From NCBI GenBank assembly GCA_020536535.1, contig JAHLWZ010000729.1, positions 1-64,000 on the forward strand: a DNA stretch of 64,000 bases, given 5' to 3'. The number at the start of each line of letters is the position of its first letter. The stretch's first letter is position 1. Below are positions 14,076 through 61,215 of this stretch, one piece after another. The position numbers and the translations under genes were made by a program. The notes under the pieces are model-generated. The model saw only the letters and a list, made by a program, of their open reading frames with translations. It searched no databases and was not told where the DNA came from. Source of the stretch: Pelomyxa schiedti. Lineage: Eukaryota > Protista > Evosea.

Positions 14076-16613
<2,538 letters not shown>

Positions 16614-16827
16614 CTTGGGAATACGGTCGCGTGTGTCGTTGGTTGAAGCGAAACGATTGTTTTGAACTTTGGAAAAATGGCAGAAGAAAACGAAGGAAGG
16701 GGTTTGTTTCTTTGTTTTTCTGTGTGGTTGGTGTTGAGGGTGTGAGTGTTCGCTGTTGGGCGAATCACTATCAATATTGAATGACTATTGGTGTGTGTGT
16801 TGGGGTGTGTTGGGTTTTGTTTTGGGT

Positions 16828-36174: not shown

Positions 36175-37187
36175 CTATGTTTGTGTGATGAGACGCACTA
36201 GTCTTTTACCACTTGTTGATTTTTTCAGCTCAACATATTTTTGGGACGCAACCAGAGCACACTACTCGTCGTGCTTCCACATATCCAGTAGGAATTCCAC
36301 ATACAACCGCGTAAGTGCTTATCCAAAAACATACCCCATAGAATCCCATCCAAGCAAAAGCGAGACAGCAACAAAACCGATTTTCATATTTGCAACCTTG
36401 GACCCAGAGTGAATACCCTCCCATTAAAAGGAGGTTCCTTTTTGCAGCCATCGTCCACCTGAGATACCAGCAATATGACCCACCTTGAACAAAAGTATAA
36501 CCGCAGCCCCACCTTCAATTAAACCAGTATAACCAGTAGCCGTCAAACCTCCGTCAAACCAAACACACAACAAAACAAACAAAGCATCACGCAAACCAAA
36601 AAAATAACCCAACACAACGCGGTAGCAGACACCTACACCACCACCAATCCCCCTCAACCCCCTCTGTCGTTCCCAGTATAAAAAGTTCGTAATAAATGCC
36701 CCTACATGTGGGCTTAATTCGTTGCGTAGCTCAACGGTAGAGCGCCTGGAGAACAGGGTTAGAAGTGTCGGTTCGACTCCCACCGTGTCCGTATCTCACA
36801 ATTTTTTTTTTCCCCCCTTTTTTGGCTGTGGTTTGGGGATGCATGATACTCACCCCCAAACACCACAACACCAGAGAGATCCACTGCTGCTGCGTGCCCC
36901 ACCCAAAAGTCTTTTCGCTTTGCTCAATCTTTTGGGTGGTTACCGTTTTTTTGGTGTTTCCCAGCGGCCTTTCGATGCAAAAAAGCATAGACCCCTTTTG
37001 GTAAACTTGTATGTCTTTGCGGAAAACTGTAGCTTTTTTCCTCTTCCTTTTTGGCTCTACTCATGTTTTTTTTTACTCTACTGTCACAGTGACCTGCACT
37101 TCATTGTCGTCATCTGCTACTTTTGGTGGCAAAGGGGATACACGGGCACTGAAACCAGGGCCACTTGGTGTGATGGTAACCTGCTCG
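35512..37187. repeat. Copy 2 of the duplicated segment
   Basis: Direct match to 1-1584, with an extra ~305 bp at about 36400-36705. Confidence 0.95.
36720..36791 (+). ncRNA. tRNA-like Pol III unit, second copy
   Basis: Identical to 1143-1210 from GCGTAGCTC onward; differs only at the 5' acceptor strand; followed by a T run. Confidence 0.72.
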
Positions 37188-39308
37188 CCACTAGTCACAA
37201 ATGGTAGCGAGAGCCTTTGCCCATAGCTCACTCTTCTCTCACCTGTAGAGTGTTAGCACAGCCACTTTTTTTTTTTTGAAATATTTTCACCTGTGGCTGT
37301 TGGCTCAGTATGGGACAATTCCAGAACAACGGTTGTCTTTACAGAGTCCTTTGTTGTTCAGTTGAGAAGAAATGGAACAAAGGGAGGGTAGTGTACTTCT
37401 TGCAACAAGCGCAATTTAACAGAACCATCAAATTTACAGGGTGTCACGCCCATGACAACAGAATTTCCGTCTTGCTTCACTGACACTTGCACCTAGGTCG
37501 ATGTTAGAATTGGCTGGCAAAAAGCATGTATACCTGTGCCGATGTAGTTTCAATCTTGGGAAGCGATTGCGTGTGAACGAGTTGATCCTTTTCAATGTTC
37601 GCTTCCACTGCGAGCTTATTTTTCATGATGTAGGCTTTAAGTTTCCCATTTGAAATTCTGTACAGTAAAACATTAGAAGGCATCAGAAGAGCTTTAATAT
37701 ACTTCGGCATTAGGGAACCCACAGGGAAATAGAAAGGAATTTGCCATCCAGTTCGGGAATCGGGAGTGCTGTGCCCAAATCAGTTTGCTTGGGAAACAAC
37801 AAAGTAGTTACCAAACTATAATAGAGGATCCCTTCTTGAAGACAGTGTAAGACTCAGGGCCAAGGGGTGCATCCATCTCCACCCAGTAGGCTTCAGCATT
37901 TTCTATACAAATGAGTTTATTACAATAAGTATGCCGGAAAACCAGATATTGTCTTGGGTGTGTCAGATTTTGGGGGAGATGGAGTAGGTGTTGGAGTTGG
38001 GGTGGGAGTAGGTGGGTTAGTTGGTGTGACAGCTGGAGTCGAGGCAGGGGTGACTTTGGGTGTAACAGGTGCAATAGTGGGAAGAATGCCGGGTGTAGCA
38101 GAAGGGTTGGTATCAAAGTCACCTGCCAGTATCAATACAGCCATATTCCCATATTTTGAGTGAGGACCCACAGAAATGCCAGCCTAAAGGAAGTAAACAT
38201 ATTACCACAGAGTTGTTGCACAGACCACTCGGCAAGATATATCAAACAAACGAGTGCGGTCAACTTTTTTGGACTCACCATCTGAAATTATCAGCTGTAT
38301 AATATGTTAAACTTTTTATTATTTTCTTTTGCTACAAAAACCTGTGCAACCACATCAAAGGCGTTAAGGGCACCATAGGAGAAGAGCTCAAAAAGCTAAG
38401 GAACAATCAGTGGAAGAACAAAGTCTTGCTCGAAGTACCCTTATTCTCCAGGCACCATATCTGGTGTACCTCTGGGAGGGTGTGGTACCATCAGACATTG
38501 TGTCATTTGTCTCACCTTATCAGAGAGCTTAGAAACTGAAGTTGTAAGCACGGAAGAACCTCTGGGGCCTGCATCAAGGACCAGGTCTCTTGCAGAGTGT
38601 GATAAAGGCTCACAAAATGTGAGAGGTTCTCTGGCTCCTGCACGACGAAGGAATGCTATAGCAGCGTCAACTGCCTCAATTCCATCCGTTGTTTCTCTCT
38701 CGCCTACACCCGATACAATTTGCCGCTTACCTTCGACGATTCAGTCCAAAAAAAAAAGGCACAAACACACAAACCTCTAAATGTGTGTAAAGTTGTAAGA
38801 ATACGATCTGCAAACGCCGCCGGTGCAGTGCGAGCTGCATTAAGCTCTTTGAATACATCTTCTGCAGTGAATTTTGGTGCCACCAAAGTTTTATTGGCGA
38901 CAGCCTTCGATACAGCAGCAGGTCCCTGGGTAGTATTTTGTTTATGTTATTAAGATTGCATATTAACGTACTTGTGCAGCAAGGCCAAAAAGCTTGGCCA
39001 TTCTTTCTTCCTCTCTTTTATTTTGTTCTTCAGTTGCCTTTAGACCTCTGTCAAATGGTAGGTGTTATCCACCCATCAGTTATTGTTATTTTTATTTTTT
39101 TATTCTTATTTTTCATTATTATGTTGAACCTATCGTCAGTGTCGCCGGTTGGCGAAGACGCCGAAGTTGAAGTGGCCGTCGGTTTAGTTGTCAACGGCTC
39201 TCCGCACGTCATACAAAACTATTCGGTTCATGTTAGTTGGTCGCGTCGTTGCGTAGGGTGCCTAACCTTTCCCGACGCCGCTGTAGCGTGACATCCCGTG
39301 CAAATCAT
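37073..39308 (-). CDS. Zinc-ribbon + CAP/SCP domain + PT linker + HSP20-like C-terminal region
   Basis: MICTGCHA...K|FCMTCG; VFKELNAARTAPAAFA, DGTTPSQRYTRYG, GISVGPHSKYGNMAVL; beta-rich tail YGQRLSLPF (HSP20-like call tentative). Confidence 0.7.
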
Positions 39309-39636: not shown

Positions 39637-41424
39637 ATGGAGTATCGCGTTGTGTTTGTTGACTCGCCAGAGAACCCAGACAGGGCTCTCAGTGTTTCCT
39701 TGCCACCAGCGGTACAACCTCAAAAAGCGTAATAGATAGATTTTTTACGTCCGGTTTCCAAAGGCATCACTGCAACAACTCCTGGAGACTGTCGCATCAA
39801 CCGTGGGGTGTTGCCACTCCCAAATGAGTGTTGTTGTGCGGGGAAGACATCTTAAGAGCAGAAATGACTTGGTCTCTGCTTTGGTGCAACCTCGTGGTAT
39901 GGACGTTTTAGTACAAGTTGACGAGAATGGATTGAATTTATCCAGCGTTCAGACAACATCTACGTTATACATAAGTCAGTAACTCGCCCAATCCTCACGA
40001 GAAACCTTTGCATGGGAACCATTCTGACCAGAAGTAAGGCTGGCATAAACAGCCAAGAGGTTGGGAGTTGTCTGCCTTCTCCATTTTCACTTTGACACTT
40101 AATCACAGGCATGTGCAAACATTGTCTCAGAATTGGCCAAGACCTGTACATTAGAATCCTGTGACTGGCGCACTGTGTGCCCCTTAGTTGTATCATTCCC
40201 TTGTTTGCTGATTGACTTGTAGGGGGTGGATGTAATTCAATCTTTTTATCCACGGCCTGAATGCAAGGAGAGACAGCAAGTAGATTGCAGCATGAAACTT
40301 CGTATGCTTTTCTCAAAGGTATGGGGAGCTTTACACCTTATAAAGAGCAAGCTCTGCATGCAACCTGCACTTCTCTTATCAGCATTCGGCAAAAATTAGT
40401 CTTTTTGTCCCAGGTTCTGGAAGGTCCAACAAACGAAGATCAATCACAGTGTGATCCCTTACCCAATAACTGAGGATTTAATAAGTACAGGAAGGATGCA
40501 GTTGATTTGGGAGAACAATGTCATCAACTGGCCTCAGTTCTTTCTATTTTAGCAACAACCCTGGCTAGCTTCTCCTCATCTACGATGTCAAGTAAATCAT
40601 GTAATGCCGGCATTTACAAAGCACCTTTTGGGGTTGTCTCTATACACACAGAAGTATTTAATTCCAAGAATGAGCATAATGTAGGCTAACTCTATCTTAC
40701 CCCTTCTCACTGGTTGACTGCAGGGTAGAAGGGAAGATATTTCAAGTATCGCTCCAAAGAGATCTCTCATTCCACCGACTAAAGGCATTGTATGCATACC
40801 CCTAGCCAATAGTTGTTTTTTCGTTTGGTTAAGGGAAAAATAGGAAGAAATGGAGGAGCATGATCACACTTGCTTCATCTATGATTGCTCTCAAAATGCA
40901 AAAGCGGTCGTTATGCAAATGATCCTTGGAACGCTTGCACAGGGCAACAGTTTACTCCTTGTGCTGCAAGCAGCTTTCTTAAGAGATGTATTCAATGGCC
41001 TCTCACAGAGAGGAGTGGACACTGGTACACTCTTATCAACAAATAGACTATCTATTCTGGATAGCTCAGTTTACCTCCATGTAAGGTTCATTGTGTTTCC
41101 AAAACCACCAATCAATTGACCTTCCAGGACCAACCTGCAGAGGAAAGAGTTACCTGGATAAAGGAGAATGCTGAGCACATCCTGGCAAAAAGTGGATGTA
41201 ACTCTATCTCAATTGTGGGGGATGTAGGATACCCTACAGACAAGCCTGAGAATGTCCAACAGATATACGAGCAGCAACTATTATCTTACGAAACTATTGT
41301 AACAAACGCGCTATACAAAGTCCTGCCAGCTGAGTGTATATGCCTCTACGAAAGAGCTGCCTTTCCTCCCCAATTCCTTTCCAAATTGATATTGGTGCAT
41401 GAGTTTGAACTGGAAGAATATTGA
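39637..41424 (+). CDS. Multi-exon protein with possible ubiquitin-like N-terminus and C-terminal MEDS sensory domain
   Basis: KGI|EEMEEHDHTCFIYD...GNSLLLV...ISIVGDV...LLSYE...CICLYERAAFPPQFLSKLILVH follows the MEDS pattern; internal exon joins partly uncertain. Confidence 0.7.
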
Positions 41425-41529
41425 TAGGTGCCACACAACATGAAAAACGAATTTTGTATAAAGTAAACTGCATCCTAATATAGTTGCAGAAAACACTCTT
41501 TCTTTCCTTTGTTTGGTCAGTATTTTTGG

Positions 41530-42447
41530 TCAGTGGTTTTTCAGCCAGGCACGAAACGAATTCACAAACGCTAATCGAGTCCCACTCATTCCAGCAGCCA
41601 CAGCCCACCCAGGAAGGCTTCCCCTGAACAAATGAGAAACAGACAATGGGCAGAAATACCAACCTCAGATCGGTGCAAACAATCTCTGTTATCTCGGTTG
41701 TGTTTGGGTCCACCTCTCTGAATATAACGCCAGAGGGGTAATTCTTTGCACGAACTGAACCTTTTTGAAAGGAGATGAGTATACTTTTTAAAAAGTAGTC
41801 TTGGGGTACCCTGAGCTGGAGTGAGAGATACACCCTCATAAGCTTGAGAACAAAGCACAGCGGCGCGACAAGTGGGATATGATGAAAGTGGCGGGACATC
41901 AGACATAACCCGGCAGTCCACATAGTCACGGGAAGATATCCACCCTCCAACAGCTGGATTTGTTACGACATGAACTATATCCCGGCGCCAAGTTCTCCCT
42001 GAATGAGTTGCGCAAGGGTCTATAGTGTAAATTGATTCCAGAATCTTGAAGGTATTGTCCAATTCTTGATGACTGACAGGATCTGCACCAGGTTAACCGG
42101 AAAGTAGCTAAAAAAAAGGGAAGATTCTTAACCCCACAGTGACTCAAGAACTTTGTTCATGGGAGCATTCAACAATGCAACTGTCTTGAACGTTGAAGGG
42201 CGTGGCTCTGTTCCAGGCCTAATATCAGCCCTGCTTACAGTCACACCATCCTGTGCAATATCGGTAAATCTCAATGCATGTATCAATAACAGTTATTTGT
42301 GGTGACCAGCGGATAACACACCCCTGACTTAACTACGGACCAAATGTCAGCCCTCTGCGCCTTCGATATTAATTCGTCAATTGTGGCCTGGCACAGATCG
42401 CACAGATCTTCCCCGGTCCATGATGGAAGCGCAGGCAATTTACTCAT
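41530..42447 (-). CDS. START-domain lipid-binding protein
   Basis: GWISSRDYVDCR, VRAKNYPSG, TDLR|GSLPGWAV. Confidence 0.85.
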
Positions 42448-42582: not shown

Positions 42583-45611
<3,029 letters not shown>

Positions 45612-47558: not shown

Positions 47559-48152
47559 TTACAGTAACATCCTCATGTCGGTGTTGTGGCCCTCAGGCGA
47601 CCAGTAGCCGTCGCCGTAGGCCACGAAGCCGTGGCGTTGGTACCACCGCACCGCCCTGCCGTTGTTTGTCTGCACGCCCCCGAGCAGCACGAGGCTCCTG
47701 CACCCCAGCGCCGACCTGCAGAACCCCACGACGTGCGGGAAGCACGCGGCGGCCACCCCCCGCGACTGCCACTCGTCCGCGACGCAGGGCGCGAACGCCG
47801 CGTCGGCCTCGCCCAGGCTCGCCCCCGCGCGGTAGTAGCGCGCCCGCGCGTGCGCGTCGCACCCCAGGCCGATGGAGAAGTACGCGACCACGACGACGGC
47901 AGGCGGCGGCGGCGGCGGCGGCGGTGCAGTGTGGTCCAGGGCCTCGGTCACGTCCAGCGCCACGAGCGAGGTTGCTTGGGGGTCGTGGCAGAGGGACGAC
48001 GCGGTTGCTTGGTCCAAGGCGTGCGGAGCAAAGAACTTCCTGGTGGCAGTCGACAGCGACGCGAAAAAAGACCCCAGTGCGGGGGAGTGATCGGGACGCA
48101 GGACGTGCAGCTGCAGGCGCGAGGAGGGCCCGCAGGGCACTAGGGCTATCAT
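47559..48152 (-). CDS. GNAT N-acetyltransferase, intronless, bacterial-type
   Basis: Motif A FAPCVADEWQSRGVA; LLGGVQTNNGRAVRWYQRHGF. Confidence 0.88.
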   Translation of the reverse strand: MIALVPCGPSSRLQLHVLRPDHSPALGSFFASLSTATRKFFAPHALDQATASSLCHDPQATSLVALDVTEALDHTAPPPPPPPPAVVVVAYFSIGLGCDAHARARYYRAGASLGEADAAFAPCVADEWQSRGVAAACFPHVVGFCRSALGCRSLVLLGGVQTNNGRAVRWYQRHGFVAYGDGYWSPEGHNTDMRMLL

Positions 48153-48304
48153 TTTTTTTTTTTTTTAATATCTTTCACCATCCATCTTTACGTGGTTTCG
48201 TTTCTTAAGGTTCGAAAGGGCTTAATGTGTTTATGTTTTTTCCCCCAGCTCGTGGGTTTTGCCCTCTTTTGTGGATGAAGCACAGAGCAGGTTATGAGTT
48301 AGAG

Positions 48305-51300
48305 CTAGGAAGAAGATGACGAGGATGAAGACCTCTTTTTCCTCTTTCTCCGGCTTTTGATTGTGGTTGACGATGAGGAAGTCGAGGAATTTGATGCACG
48401 TTTCTTCCTGTCCTTCTTTGAGTTCTTCCCACGAGATTGTGTCCCCTTTTTTTTCGGCATGTAAATGGCCTTTTTTTTGGGTCGTCGCTTTCGTTTGGGC
48501 TTTGTTTGTTGTGGGGACGAGGATGAGGATGAGGATGAGGATGAGGATGAGGATGAGGATGAGGATGAGGATGAGGATGAGGATGAGGATGAGGATGAGG
48601 ATGAGGATGAGGATGAGGATGAGGATGNNNNNNNNNNNNNNNNNNNNNNNNNNNNNNNNNNNNNNNNNNNNNNNNNNNNNNNNNNNNNNNNNNNNNNNNN
48701 NNNNNNNNNNNNNNNNNNNNNNNNNNNATGAGGATGAGGATGAGGATGAGGATGAGGATGAGGATGAGGATGAGGATGAGGATGAGGATGAGGATGAGGA
48801 TGAGGATGAGGATGAGGATGAGGATGAGGATGAGGATGAGGATGAGGAAGAAGTGCAAGCCTTTGTTGTGGCTTTTCTACTGGAATGGCGTTGTGTTGCC
48901 GAGATGTCATCATCATCAGGGCTGTCATTGTCTGTGGGACTTTCCTCCTTTGCTCTCAGTGATGACATGGGAATGGGTGGCAGTGGCTTCTTGAGCCGGA
49001 ACTGTTCCACTCTGGAATCGTACTTGAGAAGTGCAGCCAAAGGTGGGCTGCAATTCAGCACTGACCCTTTGTTTGCACTTGGCGGTGGGTTCTTGAGGAT
49101 GTACTTGAGGGCCTCTTCTGTTGATGGGCGTTCATCAAACAGTTCCTTAGAGAGGAGTTCCGCCCATTTCTTTACTTCCGCACAACTCTCTGGGTGGGTC
49201 TTACAGAAAGGGGCTTGGCTTAGCATTTGTCCTAGCATATACACATCAGATTTGGCACTGCACTTGCGATCTATGGGTTTTTCAAGAAGGCGCACAGTTT
49301 TTGAGTGATAGGTACCAAACTCGGCAGCATATTCCAAGTCGATCAGAAGCCAGCTATTTGTATCTGGGTTGAACACAAGATTCGCCCACCTCACATCACG
49401 GTGGGCAATTCCGAGGCTGTGAAGGCCTGCCAGGCCAAATAGAGTGCTCACCGCAGCTATGAATAGCTCCAATTCATTGGTTGGGTGCCGAGCATCACCA
49501 AGTGGCGCTAGTGTTACTTCTAATTCTTCTGCACTCTTGGTTTTCTTCGTGTCCCTACTGCCCTTCCTCCCACTGCTGATAACTCTTGGGAAGTGCACAG
49601 CATGAATTATGAAAGGCTTCAATGATTCTTCGACATCTTCTTGTAATCGTCTGTAGACTGAGGAAAATGTTTCAACAGAGAAAGTAGAACTGTGCAAGTG
49701 TCAGTTAGAGCACTCTGATTGGCACAACAAACCAAGTGCGTGATATCCTCTTGTGTATGTACCTATTACTCTTTAAGGTCACCACACAATTTGATTCTTC
49801 TTTCTTCAGTATGATATCTGTAGTCACAGGTATCTTTTGCGTACCATAAGTGTACATTGCGTTTTAGGTATTGACAATGTTACATACCCTGTGAAATACA
49901 TCAAATGTTTTTATCAAACGGCAAACATTGATAGCAAAAATGAACATTTGCAGCTTATCCTATGTGATGAATGTAAGGTTTGTACAGAAAACAGAAATGA
50001 AAACAAACATTTTCTTGAAGCATATCCAGTGACGGCCCCAGCTGTTCAGTGACATATTGTTTGTTTTTTCCTTTAAAGCACACACAGGGCTGAAAAGTTG
50101 CCCCAGAAGTTGCATAGGTCACAAGGTACTTAATGAAAGTAGCCTCAAACCAGGGATCTTTACGGATCTTCTTCCTTAACTCTTTTTTTGGTTTCCCTAG
50201 TGGGTGGACTGCACATTTTTCTTCACCTTCTTTATTTTTGAAAACAGGAGCTCACCTTTGACCATAAGTTTCCCATCAAACTCAAACCACCAGTCTGCTC
50301 GTGTTCCCGCCACAGATACAGATTTTTCTGTTCTGTTCCTTTGTGGTGTTTTGCTTCTTGCTGCCACATCAGGATTGTGCTTCCTCCATTGGTGAAATGG
50401 TTCTGCAAAGTATTTCTCAATCCAGCCAGCAAGGGAAGCCTCTGAGCTGTCTGGGATGCTTTCTCTTCGATATTTCAGTCCAGAATAAACCTCACACAAA
50501 CCAGGGCAACTCCTTGCCAGGTCAAACTGGAACACTTTTGGGAACCTTTGATGCAACCAAATCTCTGAAGAATCAGAAGAAACAGCCAAAGGGGTATCCA
50601 ACAGGTACTTTTTGAGTTCTGCTCTTACAGGCACCTTATCAAAAGGTTTTATCAGAGCATCAATTATTTCTTTTGTCACATCCTCTTTTTGGAGTTACAT
50701 AACACTCAAAAAAGAAAACATAAACCTTGAGATGACAATGTGTCAATCAAATCATCCTCTGATGTAATTGATAGCATTGTCTCCAATGCTTCCTCACACA
50801 TATCCATACCATTTATTTTCTTCATAAACTGCTGTTTTGCCAGAGGAGCGCAATCTTGCCTAATAATAAGAGAATACAAACGCTTTTTCTTTTGGGAATT
50901 CAATGAAAGTGGAAAGAATTCACTCATACCTCTGCTGTAAAAAGCTGATGAAGAAACTTGGATGCTGAAGGTGCAACCACAAGAATTGGCACCAAAGAGA
51001 TAAGATTTGCGATGTTTTCAGTTCTAAGGGTCCAGAATTGAACTAGAAGTGTTTTGAAGTCACAGTTCAAAGATTTCATCTAAAAAAAAATGAGCTCCAG
51101 TGATTTCGAAAGGATAACCTTATGATTGGCCAAAGCCAAGGTTAAGCCATAAGAATCTTTACAGAGGAGCAGTTCCCTAGTGAGTATGACAAGAGATTCG
51201 AGATTTAAATCATCAAGGAATGAGGTGACTTCCATAGGACAACAAGTGTTGATCTAGATTTGTTAGAAATGATAACTGAAAAATAAATGACTTGATACTT

Positions 51301-54803: not shown

Positions 54804-54973
54804 TCTCGTTACAACTGCAGGTTTTTTACCCTTTTCTCGCAATTTTTTTTTGTTTCTTTTTTCTCTGTCGTCGCTAGTTCTCTCATTTTGAAGATTGCGT
54901 TCCATAAAGGCCAGAGTTCAGATCTGGATAGTGCATGCGCCCGAAACAAAAGATTGGATCTCAAAGCTGCCAT

Positions 54974-56406
54974 TCACAGGTATTGGAGTACTCGCGTGAG
55001 ATTGGTTGTGTAGTCTCCTGTCCAATTGATGCTGAAGGTAGAATAAGGCCGAGAATTAAGGAAGAGGGTATCAACCTGTTCAGGCAGACACAGAGTTCAT
55101 ATGGGGTTATTAGTGGTTTATGAAATTGGTTTGCCTGGTTCCTCACAGTATTAAACGTGCAGGATAGTACAACAAAAACCTTTGGAAATGTTGGGAGTAG
55201 TGTCAGGGGAAGGGGTTTACTTACATCCACGTCAGGAAAATTCGCTAGTTTGTATTCATTTATTGCTCCAACAGATAAAACTATGCACGATTTTCCTGCA
55301 CCCTCTATTATTGAGCGCAGAGGTGCAATTGCTTTTTCAATGGTTGAATTGGCAGGAGATGTCACTAATGCAACTGTAGATGCAGATTGTAGTGCCTTGA
55401 TACCAATTGCGTAACGTCGGGAGACGATTCTACTTCCATTTGCCTGATTTGTAGTTCCAGTATTGGGATTGTAGCAAGTTACCTGATTTATCTTTTAATA
55501 TCACCTCAAACTACTGACGTACTTACATTCATCATTGGAAAGTTCAACAGCAAGTTCTCAAAAGTACGGGATTCCGGAGAACCAATAAATACTATCTGAG
55601 AAATCGGACTAGGTAAGACTGCCCTCCGACCACAGAAAGACCAGACAGTGCAGCTTGTATCAGTACTGTTGTCTGAAGTGGCACCCTGAGGTAAGCGATT
55701 TAGGGGTGTCTCTCACAAGAAAAGTACAGTGCATGAAGATGACATAATATCATTATCAAGGCTAGCAACGATAAAATTGGGTCTACTGAGAAGCGCGGTT
55801 TTGAGTTCTGCACAGTGATGCAGGTAGGGAGCATCTGGGAAAACGAGGCAACAACCGGAATCGATTTCCACTCTTGAACAGAATGAAGTGAACTCGGAAC
55901 AATTCAGAGGAGAGTGGCCAAAGACATAGAATGTAGGAATTTTCGATTTCCTAAGTGTTCAACGATAGTCACGAACCGAGCGGAAAGGAGTTCAGAGACC
56001 TACCAACTCAAGCAAGAGGTGCCGAATAATATTGCAGCCGTAGCGCCAACGTGAGCAGCAGCAGTCTGGTACAATCGTCAAGTGACGCCCATTGGTTTGT
56101 TATTTTGGAGTGGGAAGTGTGCCTCGTCCACGCAGCAGGTGACAACTGGGTCCCCGATCAAATAAACCTACCCGGTGTGACGCAATAGCAACTGCGTTAG
56201 TGACGGCATCATCACCACATAACGAAAGGCAGCAGTGGCACCTCAGGCGCGAAACCAGCAGACGAGCGGACGGCTTCCTCGAGCTCTGATACAATCCGAG
56301 GGCCCTGCGTGAGCTGCTCCGCATCGGCAAACTGGACACAGACCCTACGGTACCCACCCCGCGCCACAAACTCCACGGCACTCGGCGGCACAACAATCTT
56401 CTCCAT
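54974..56406 (-). CDS. DPH2: Diphthamide biosynthesis protein 2
   Basis: YRRVCVQFA, CCVDE|TAAAHV...GTSCLS, VGAINEYKLANFPDVD|VFVVLSC, FHKPLITPYEL, WTGDY; exact 3' end uncertain. Confidence 0.85.
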
Positions 56407-59400: not shown

Positions 59401-61215
59401 TGAGGTTAATGAATACTACACTTCCTTCCTAAATTTGATAATAGGGTCGGCTGCAAGAGCTCACCTTGCAGGCCCAACAGTACTCCACTTCCCCTGTCAA
59501 CCTGGGTAGCCCAAAACAGGTGGCAAATATACTCTTCGAGCGTTTGAATCTTAAATTACCATCAAGTATGATGCTTTTTGACTCACCCGTATTTACTGTT
59601 GCAGGTGCAAAAACGAACTCGAAGTCGAGTACATCCGAGAGTGTCCTAACTCTCTTAGCCCCCATGCATCCCTTTCCTAGACTTGTAATGGGTTTGTAGA
59701 GCCCCCTATTTGCAATGCTAACTAAAACCTTTAGATTATCGCCATTGCCAAAAAATTCTATCCAACTGGGTTTTAGCTTTAGAAGCCAAAGCAATCAAAG
59801 ATGATGTGTGTCAAGAGAGAATCTTTTTTAGCACCTCATTATGTAGAATCCAGGTTCTTGGAGAATTAAAACTCAATGGAGTTCTATATCGACTGGGACG
59901 GGAAGACTGGCCTCCTCAAACCCCGTTAGCCCTATCTCAACCCTGAGGCCGGACTAACTTTTCCTTTTACAACAGAACTTACAAAATCTTCCCAGGACAG
60001 TGTTCAAACTAAAACCCTCGTCCGATATTGGCACCCAAAACGAGATTCATATAAATGTCCGTGACGCCTTTGCGTGCACTGAGGGGTAGTTTTTGTTAAC
60101 ATACCTGGGCTAACTCTTTTTGCAGGAAAATTTTTGTTGTGGCAGATTACTCACAAATAGAATTGCGTGTTCTTGCTCATGTAAGCAAAGATGAGTATTT
60201 GATCAATGCTTTTACTGCAGGCAACAATTATGACATTCACAAGTCAGTTGCCAGCCATATATTCGGTTCCACCCCAATCTCATTTTTACCTTAACACAAA
60301 ACAGGTAAGCAAAAAGATGAAATATCTGATGAAGAAAGAAACCGAGCCAAGCGAATAGTTTTTGGAATTCTTTATGGAATGGGTATATTTGACTATCTTC
60401 TATTTCTTTCTTCATTCTCCAAAACAGGTCCCCATACATTGGCTTCGTTACTGAAAGTCCCAATGAAAACTGCATCTGCCTTTATTCAATCTTTTCTCAA
60501 CAAGGTAATTGGAGCACAGTCTCCGTTCTCCCTTTTAATTACTGGTTCCAGTTCCCTCGTGTATCTTCTTTTATAAAAGAAACTCGCTCACAAGCGAGGA
60601 GGGACCAATATATACAAACAATCACTGGCACTAAAAGAAACTTTGAAAAAATAAACACGGCAGCAATGCGTGCACGCTGCGAAAGACAGGCAGTAAATTC
60701 CGTGATACAGGGTAGTGCTGCAGACATTGTAGTGTTAATCCTACTTTCCATAATACTGCTGACGTGATCGTATAGACAAAATTAGCTATGCTCAAACTAA
60801 GCTCCGCCCTTTCATCGATTCCGCAAAGTGAACTCGTTTTACAAATTCACGACGAGCTTGTGGTAACCACCCTCTCACCACAAAAACCACAAAACCAACC
60901 AACAACACACAGATTGAGGTTCCCAAAGAATCCAAGGACGCGGCGGCCGAAATCCTAAAGAGTAGCATGGAGACCGCGCTGCCTCTGCTAGTGCCCCTCG
61001 TGGTTCACCTCTCCACCGGCACCAGGTGGGGCTCCCTTGTGCCCTATAAGCCACCGTCATCCTTGCCTGGAGGAGGAGATGGAGATGGGGATGGGGATGG
61101 AGAAGGGGCGGGAGCCTGCGCTTCCACAAGCACAAGTGCTGCAGCAGTCGATGACCCCGACGACGATGACGACTTTGCCTTGCGTTTCCTGCACTCTGAC
61201 TTCGGGGACGAATGA
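56484..61215 (+). CDS. POLN: Family-A DNA polymerase, Pol nu/theta-like, no helicase domain visible
   Basis: [22 protein letters not shown]|[19 protein letters not shown] (motif A), [15 protein letters not shown] (motif B), [24 protein letters not shown] (motif C); orthology to POLN not established. Confidence 0.82.

Follow-up and report, generated by a model that had tools for sequence, protein, structure and literature searches.

A MEDS domain joined to a ubiquitin-like N-terminus in a lineage-restricted protein family of Pelomyxa and Mastigella

The MEDS domain (PF14417) is known from prokaryotic regulators such as DcmR of Methylobacterium and EtnR2 of Mycobacterium NBB4 and from methanogen kinases such as MA2082, and the prokaryotic signalling proteins that carry it (kinases, HTH regulators, proteins of the anti-sigma RsbA type) have a kinase, PAS or DNA-binding output. 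The sensing of small hydrocarbons by this domain is worded as a prediction or hypothesis in the relevant portions of PMC11197473 and PMC11507031, while excerpts of PMC5847659 label it an inactivated KaiC-like ATPase and also count it among the output domains of some archaeal regulators. Excerpts of the PF14417 literature that touches on eukaryotes place the domain in archaeal proteins. Among the matches listed, the accessible main texts on the domain and on DcmR do not describe MEDS families of eukaryotes, and in the listed literature on Pelomyxa, Mastigella and Archamoebae MEDS had no occurrence. For the N-terminal part of the protein analysed here, the closest described systems are the ubiquilin, Rad23 and midnolin shuttles and BAG6 (BAT3/Scythe), which has an integral N-terminal ubiquitin-like domain (Ubl), BUILD and DUF3538 (PF12057) and, after long central regions, a C-terminal BAG domain. 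Excerpts of PMC11734626 and bioRxiv 10.64898/2026.04.24.720685 describe the Ubl and BUILD of BAG6 as a client-binding platform and predict that BUILD and Domain II fold together.

Here we examined a window of 64,000 nucleotides from Pelomyxa schiedti, in which one gene encodes a Ubl, a helical domain and a MEDS domain in succession, an architecture that we did not find described in the literature searched. The gene model was built by mapping the GenBank protein Pelo_9288 (P0001, 405 aa), the one longer protein matched by the last exon, onto the window and then adding one upstream exon. The result is a single forward-strand gene at 39637-41424 with 10 exons and 450 codons plus stop; P0001 is a suffix of this frame, without residues 1-45 of the 450-aa model, and the sole stop is the terminal one. 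Each of the nine introns is GT-AG and measures 42-56 nt, and the available part of PMC8887013 gives 7.43 introns per gene, 98.41% of them GT-AG. The locus is nuclear and eukaryotic. Its features are the following:

39637..39711, + strand: exon 1, first two Ubl strands; outside the GenBank model, aligns with the paralog N-termini (49.7 against 13.5 bits)
39764..39896, + strand: exon 2, Ubl helix and later strands
39953..40059, + strand: exon 3, last Ubl strand (to about 39975) and an MGT/CGT motif at 40012-40020
40109..40174, + strand: exon 4, middle helical domain
40223..40301, + strand: exon 5, middle helical domain
40346..40448, + strand: exon 6, middle domain, long helix 1
40491..40680, + strand: exon 7, middle domain, long helix 2 and beta-hairpin
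40724..40789, + strand: exon 8, linker preceding MEDS
40844..41080, + strand: exon 9, first half of MEDS; invariant His 40865-40867, Cys 40871-40873, Tyr 41072-41074
41081..41127, + strand: intron 9, within MEDS; 47 nt, GT-AG, phase 0
41128..41424, + strand: exon 10, latter half of MEDS with Asp 41221-41223, Glu 41290-41292, Cys 41341-41343 and His 41398-41400, ending in the stop at 41422-41424
39682..41352, no strand: joint found in sequencing runs that skips 1671 nt in frame, leaving 38 codons plus stop

The start at 39637 had been proposed in an initial annotation of this DNA, and comparison with the paralogs agrees with it. On a profile made from the N-termini of eight paralogs, without the gene itself, the N-terminal 85 residues of the 450-aa model reached 49.7 bits, and none of 500 shuffles attained this value (464 were scored, the best at 5.8 bits), whereas the annotated part alone obtained 13.5 bits. 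From these scores we judge that the GenBank start of Pelo_9288 lies 45 residues too far downstream. The MGT/CGT motif of exon 3 is common to five Pelomyxa paralogs. As for the intron within MEDS, which the initial annotation had put at about 41081-41128, its GT-AG borders and position were right and its end was one base off, and the ubiquitin-like peptide that this annotation quoted as WETVASTVG was a misreading of the frame, which gives LLETVASTVG.

Searched with P0001 (E<=0.001), a set of 1.84 billion cluster representatives yielded 122 matches, 19 of which belong to one amoebal family: five named proteins of P. schiedti, ten named proteins of Mastigella eilhardi (from a Trinity assembly) and four unnamed fragments that scored 70-92 bits on the eukaryotic MEDS profile against 26-41 on the prokaryote-type profile. 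An additional search supplied a sixth P. schiedti paralog. The family thus numbers at least six Pelomyxa and ten Mastigella genes, lower bounds since the counts come from protein collections, and the partners of MEDS in it are the Ubl and the helical domain. The remaining 103 matches show a prokaryote-type layout, mostly with MEDS ahead of PAS, GAF or kinase domains; this label rests mainly on the layout, 12 of the 103 having been looked up by name. In this search the family has a narrow eukaryotic range, all 15 named eukaryotic matches being from Pelomyxa or Mastigella, the genera that form the Pelomyxidae according to an excerpt of PMC9010356. Four Mastigella Trinity ORFs (P0010, P0037, P0127 and P0134) hold Ubl, middle domain and MEDS in one frame, from which it follows that the fusion is transcribed in a relative; the initial annotation's joining of the Ubl and MEDS in one protein is borne out in these relatives. 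Apart from P0123, whose model is probably merged, the family members showed no domain of a kinase, of a DNA-binding protein or of an enzyme. We consider that the lineage-restricted Pelomyxidae family is real and that its anatomy and membership are firm.

Several database records of family members differ in extent. The GenBank model of P0123 (KAH3759008.1), named beta-galactosidase, consists of a family member and about 970 further residues, whereas P0003, the 257-aa product of a 978-nt contig, ends directly after MEDS, which is why the P0123 model probably merges two genes. Two other proteins, P0015 (Pelo_16017) and P0128, are recorded without a Ubl, with the helical part and MEDS only, and are either true short forms or truncated models.

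The C-terminal domain had been identified as MEDS in the initial annotation from its residue pattern, and Pfam agrees. Exon 9 alone matches positions 1-69 of the PF14417 profile (E 2.8e-5), 41128-41421 alone matches positions 87-160 (E 5.1e-5), and the spliced protein P0001 reaches 47.4 bits (E 2.4e-12; cut-off 29.8) over positions 1-160 of 161. The elements of the pattern (HxCxxY, GD, YE, CLY and the final His) are all present in the sequence, and P0001 carries the MEDS-conserved residues H236, C238, D339, Y361, E362, C379 and H398. Four of them (H236, E362, C379 and H398 in P0001 numbering) are found in all 16 eukaryotic MEDS domains and are kept in 146, 144, 147 and 148, respectively, of 148 prokaryote-type domains, and position 339 is acidic (Asp/Glu) in 16 of 16 eukaryotic domains. 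Eukaryotic and prokaryote-type domains are 20-26% identical, and several residues conserved in prokaryotes have been lost, for example Glu 246, Tyr 267 and Trp 342, which occur in none of the 16. Retention of His, Glu, Cys and His at this level of identity indicates that the site is still under selection. Like DcmR, EtnR2 and the methanogen kinases, the amoebal protein belongs to the MEDS family by its profile score and coverage and by the four residues. Its MEDS is C-terminal, however, whereas the domain begins within the first 57 residues in all 103 prokaryote-type matches; the 16 amoebal proteins all end 3-15 residues after MEDS (4 residues in the product of this gene), and the kinase, PAS or DNA-binding output of the prokaryotic proteins is without counterpart. 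Against the NF041045 model the amoebal protein scored 16.3, below the cut-off of 210.

For the fold we made an AlphaFold2 model of the full-length paralog P0005 from a 58-row alignment (pLDDT 82.8, pTM 0.56). Because P0005 aligns with the protein of the window over residues 18-447 (26.5% identity, E 2.7e-39), it can stand in for it; a single-sequence fold of P0001 reached a pLDDT of only 35.9, and the fold attributed to the product of this gene is therefore one of homology. Residues 278-467 of the model match KaiC (Z 13.7, rmsd 3.4 Å, 167 aligned residues), and KaiC, FlaH and Elp456 all lie at Z 13-14, the inactive Elongator Elp456 subunits at 13.5. The amoebal MEDS is accordingly predicted to have the RecA/KaiC fold common to iKaiC, KaiC, FlaH and Elp456, with about 10% identity to KaiC. 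Unlike KaiC it lacks Walker A: the MEDS of this gene has no GK pair, and the Walker A pattern was matched by two of 168 MEDS rows. A prediction of a MEDS homodimer with zinc scored 0.00 with the alignment not used, and carries no weight either way.

The N-terminus, which the initial annotation had called ubiquitin-like, forms a beta-grasp in the P0005 model (residues 7-80). Residues 4-84 match ubiquitin-like domains at Z 12-13 and rmsd 1.2-2.4 Å, the rows including ubiquilin, midnolin and the BAG6 Ubl, and the N-terminal family profile matches the Ubl of ubiquilin-3 (E 8.4e-6); together with the paralog profile score of this gene, these results support that description. Pfam found no match to ubiquitin (PF00240) in the exons of this gene or in P0001, the best paralog scoring 25.2 against a cut-off of 25.4, and neither exon 2 alone nor P0001 gave anything significant among PDB sequences. 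The Ubl is highly divergent among the paralogs (14.6-48.7 bits in leave-one-out scoring). The product of this gene has no GG behind the Ubl, which makes the Ubl an integral one like those of the shuttle factors. With the ubiquilin, Rad23 and midnolin shuttles the amoebal protein has the Ubl fold in common. Ubiquilin-3 and midnolin top the Foldseek list, and the midnolin Ubl is 26-27% identical to the amoebal one in the structural overlay, but these rows are tied with plain ubiquitin, so that rank assigns no family. UBA and STI1 domains were not found in the amoebal protein, and the Catch domain of midnolin was unmatched, only the Ubl being aligned in a comparison made with the full-length P0005 model.

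Between Ubl and MEDS lies a helical domain of about 150 residues that the initial annotation had overlooked. In the P0005 model it comprises four helices (residues 111-225) followed by a hairpin at 231-244, and the middle region of the product of this gene scored 52.8 bits on a paralog-only profile, the best shuffle reaching 6.4. Ahead of the ESM result we had guessed a resemblance of this domain to the N-terminus of BAG6. The top named ESM cluster was indeed BAG6, at 0.75 (a value below 0.9 being a lead only), with PF12057 on 16% of its 76 members, and just three of the top 10 named matches agreed. Pfam gave PF12057 in one of 13 family rows (E 0.14) and no match in the other 12, and the N-terminal family profile, run on 7997 candidates of 500-2000 residues, brought up none at E<=1, which is weak evidence. 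Coiled-coil matches of the helical bundle were rejected as generic, designed coiled coils scoring as well or better. Like BAG6, the amoebal protein begins with an integral Ubl and continues with a helical domain, at most a putative homologue, but it has about 450 residues and carries MEDS in the place of BAG. On these results the middle domain weakly resembles BAG6, and we assign the protein to neither the BAG6 nor the BAG1 family.

The protein pairs a domain of sensor type, whose conserved site is polar, with just two output modules, an integral Ubl and a helical bundle, and has no output of the kinase, DNA-binding or enzyme kind. This leads us to favour, tentatively and at somewhat under an even chance, a ligand-gated adaptor of the ubiquitin-proteasome system, composed of Ubl, helical middle and a C-terminal MEDS likely taken once from a prokaryote. 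Under this mechanism, MEDS would bind a small molecule or metal-ligand at its conserved residues, as has been proposed for DcmR and EtnR2, and binding would alter the packing of MEDS on the middle domain. Client proteins would be bound by the middle domain in the manner of the BAG6 N-terminus, while the Ubl would dock on the proteasome or on an E3 ligase, and the paralogs would differ in ligand or in client. The ligand may originate from the anoxic habitat or from the endosymbionts. Points against the adaptor are the BAG6 signals, all below threshold, the lack of a Pfam ubiquitin match in this gene, the prokaryote-conserved MEDS residues missing from all 16 domains, the two members recorded without a Ubl, and an unspliced RNA contig on this copy. 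After this adaptor we rank, in descending order, a ligand-free iKaiC scaffold, an adaptor that is not proteasomal and a copy in decay.

In the scaffold reading the amoebal MEDS would bind no small ligand and would act as an inactive KaiC-like module for protein interaction, in which the conserved residues serve structure or partner binding. In its favour, the fold is KaiC/RecA-like and also matches the inactive Elp456; the classification in PMC5847659 mentioned above points the same way, and a PDB search returned no solved MEDS structure or bound ligand, only weak KaiC-family matches. Yet the invariant residues (His, Glu, Cys, His) are all polar and are common to eukaryotic and prokaryote-type MEDS over 164 rows, in contrast to a surface that has mostly drifted, and the MEDS proteins DcmR and EtnR2 regulate genes for dichloromethane and for ethylene and epoxide, respectively. 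We hold the scaffold to be rather unlikely, though it is the strongest of the competing explanations.

Many Ubl domains never touch the proteasome, and this counts against a proteasomal adaptor. MEDS could sense a ligand while the Ubl and the bundle act as a generic signalling adaptor or as a BAG1-like Hsp70 co-chaperone module, which we place just behind the scaffold. The match of the N-terminal family profile to human BAG1 (E 0.0014) spans positions 13-129 and extends beyond the Ubl, BAG1 of Arabidopsis is among the rows of both fold searches, and the divergence of the Ubl among paralogs would also suit such a role. The BAG1 form of this explanation is weakened by an rmsd of 17 Å for the structural match, by the generic nature of the helical signal, which designed coiled coils equal or better, and by the Pfam BAG domain being absent from every family member scanned.

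Even with a functional family, this particular copy might be decaying or nearly silent, an outcome to which we give a low probability. The only contig of an RNA run on the gene (40372-40646, depth 5.4) is unspliced through the predicted intron 6 with its in-frame stop, while introns of neighbouring genes are spliced (13 RNA-confirmed introns of 40-49 nt among those listed, as CT..AC joints). Homology speaks for intron 6, since splicing it gives the length seen in the paralogs, and the contig may be pre-mRNA, a retained intron or DNA. That most of the gene lacks RNA reads in run X1 does not speak for silence; a single shallow run is weak evidence, and contigs cannot show absence. The joint that skips 1671 nt also bears on decay. 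It occurs in two of four runs (X3 and X4, one sample, no library record) at depths of 7.2 and 36.1, with imperfect short homology at both ends, and the depth of X4 is 51.9 to its left, 32.2 inside and 38.8 to its right; it may be a deletion allele or an amplification chimera, the uneven depths fitting a chimera as well as an allele. The intact form was seen in all three DNA-like runs. Decay is further opposed by a frame that is unbroken across 450 codons once nine canonical introns are removed, by the retention of all four invariant MEDS residues, and by the full-length similarity to paralogs (28% over 455 columns with P0123).

With regard to its origin, the 16 eukaryotic MEDS domains fall on one side of a branch supported at 100/97 in an IQ-TREE analysis with 50 prokaryote-type rows, hand-picked from 148 across the FastTree clades and with a bootstrap not fully settled, and they group at 94 in the FastTree analysis with all 148 rows; nine fragments of <130 residues, four duplicates and four isoforms were left out. 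Pelomyxa P0003 pairs with Mastigella P0004 (100/85), which places the gain of MEDS and at least one duplication before the split between the two genera. The eukaryotic clade has a long stem and is nested in no supported prokaryotic group of this unrooted tree, whose rows do not knowingly include MEDS proteins of the symbionts of P. schiedti. A long-branch grouping is possible; the N-terminal domains common to the family support the eukaryotic clade independently of the MEDS tree. The narrow eukaryotic range beside the broad prokaryotic one makes a single old transfer from a prokaryote likely, in keeping with the horizontal acquisition suggested in the initial annotation. A methanogen donor, by contrast, has no support so far from the phylogeny. 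The P0087 scan of species genomes gave 61 loci, none in a genome titled methanogen or Syntrophus, and MEDS matches occurred in eight of 301 genomes of an archaeal phylum.

Vertical inheritance of MEDS from early eukaryotes with loss elsewhere seems quite improbable: the long stem outside any supported prokaryotic group would allow it, as would searches that reach only E 0.001 with one query, but among the 122 matches the 15 named eukaryotic ones and the four fragments belong to this one family and the other 103 are prokaryote-type in layout, and losses would be required in all other sampled eukaryotes. An origin of the MEDS exons in prokaryotic contamination, or in a second gene that the prediction fused to this one by mistake, is hardly credible and largely refuted, for although no spliced RNA covers the junction in this copy and GenBank probably did merge P0123 with a neighbour, MEDS is broken by a GT-AG intron sized like the RNA-confirmed ones nearby, the contig bears COG3, RhoGAP and RING genes, and the Mastigella ORFs contain all three parts in one frame.

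In the window, 103 of 149 long frames were scanned with Pfam, and the matches include COG3, RhoGAP, RING and kinase genes. Upstream of the MEDS gene, in head-to-head orientation, lies a minus-strand neighbour (37026-38773) with a Pro/Thr-rich exon and 11 RNA-confirmed introns of 41-48 nt among those listed. Downstream, in tail-to-tail orientation and likewise on the minus strand, lies another (41475-42400), in which RNA confirms introns at about 41623-41662 and about 41759-41807; neither neighbour had a Pfam match in the frames scanned. Further exons encode a protein kinase (PF00069, 43046-43986), a carboxylesterase (15717-16784), a GNAT acetyltransferase (47562-48164), a diphthamide synthesis protein (54964-55494) and a family A DNA polymerase (60393-61212). 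A multi-copy repeat at 36370-36820 reaches a depth of 126-208 in X3 and X4, where the surrounding sequence has about 15-50, with many loose ends and a 329-nt skip, and a repeat of at least 100 letters at 48519-48627 is present in many copies. Position 42859 is A in all four runs and G in the window.

The initial annotation had envisaged an anaerobic amoeba with methanogenic symbionts as the host, and P. schiedti is such a species: according to the available text of PMC10579272 it needs its methanogen and dies once methanogenesis is blocked. That text makes no mention of MEDS, the link of the family to the symbionts is circumstantial, and the metabolite sensing envisaged in the initial annotation is not supported so far. 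A domain described as prokaryotic, with a predicted ligand, here occurs in an intron-rich, expanded family of both Pelomyxidae genera, where it is wired to ubiquitin-type machinery and not to a kinase or DNA-binding domain. With 16 divergent domains the functional site of MEDS is narrowed to four residues, so that the question of the ligand can be tested, and a natural ligand-gated degradation adaptor, if real, would be of interest to makers of inducible degradation tools. The family also provides specific, small and probably soluble candidates for host sensing in the partnership between P. schiedti and its methanogen. As a speculation that we consider unlikely, pelomyxids may have converted a metabolite sensor of prokaryotes into a family of ligand-switched proteasome shuttles, built of a Ubl, a BAG6-like client domain and MEDS, that would read molecules of their intracellular methanogens and bacteria and respond with the degradation of chosen host proteins. 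If this were true, the amoebal MEDS family would serve the host as its sensor in an obligate endosymbiosis with archaea.
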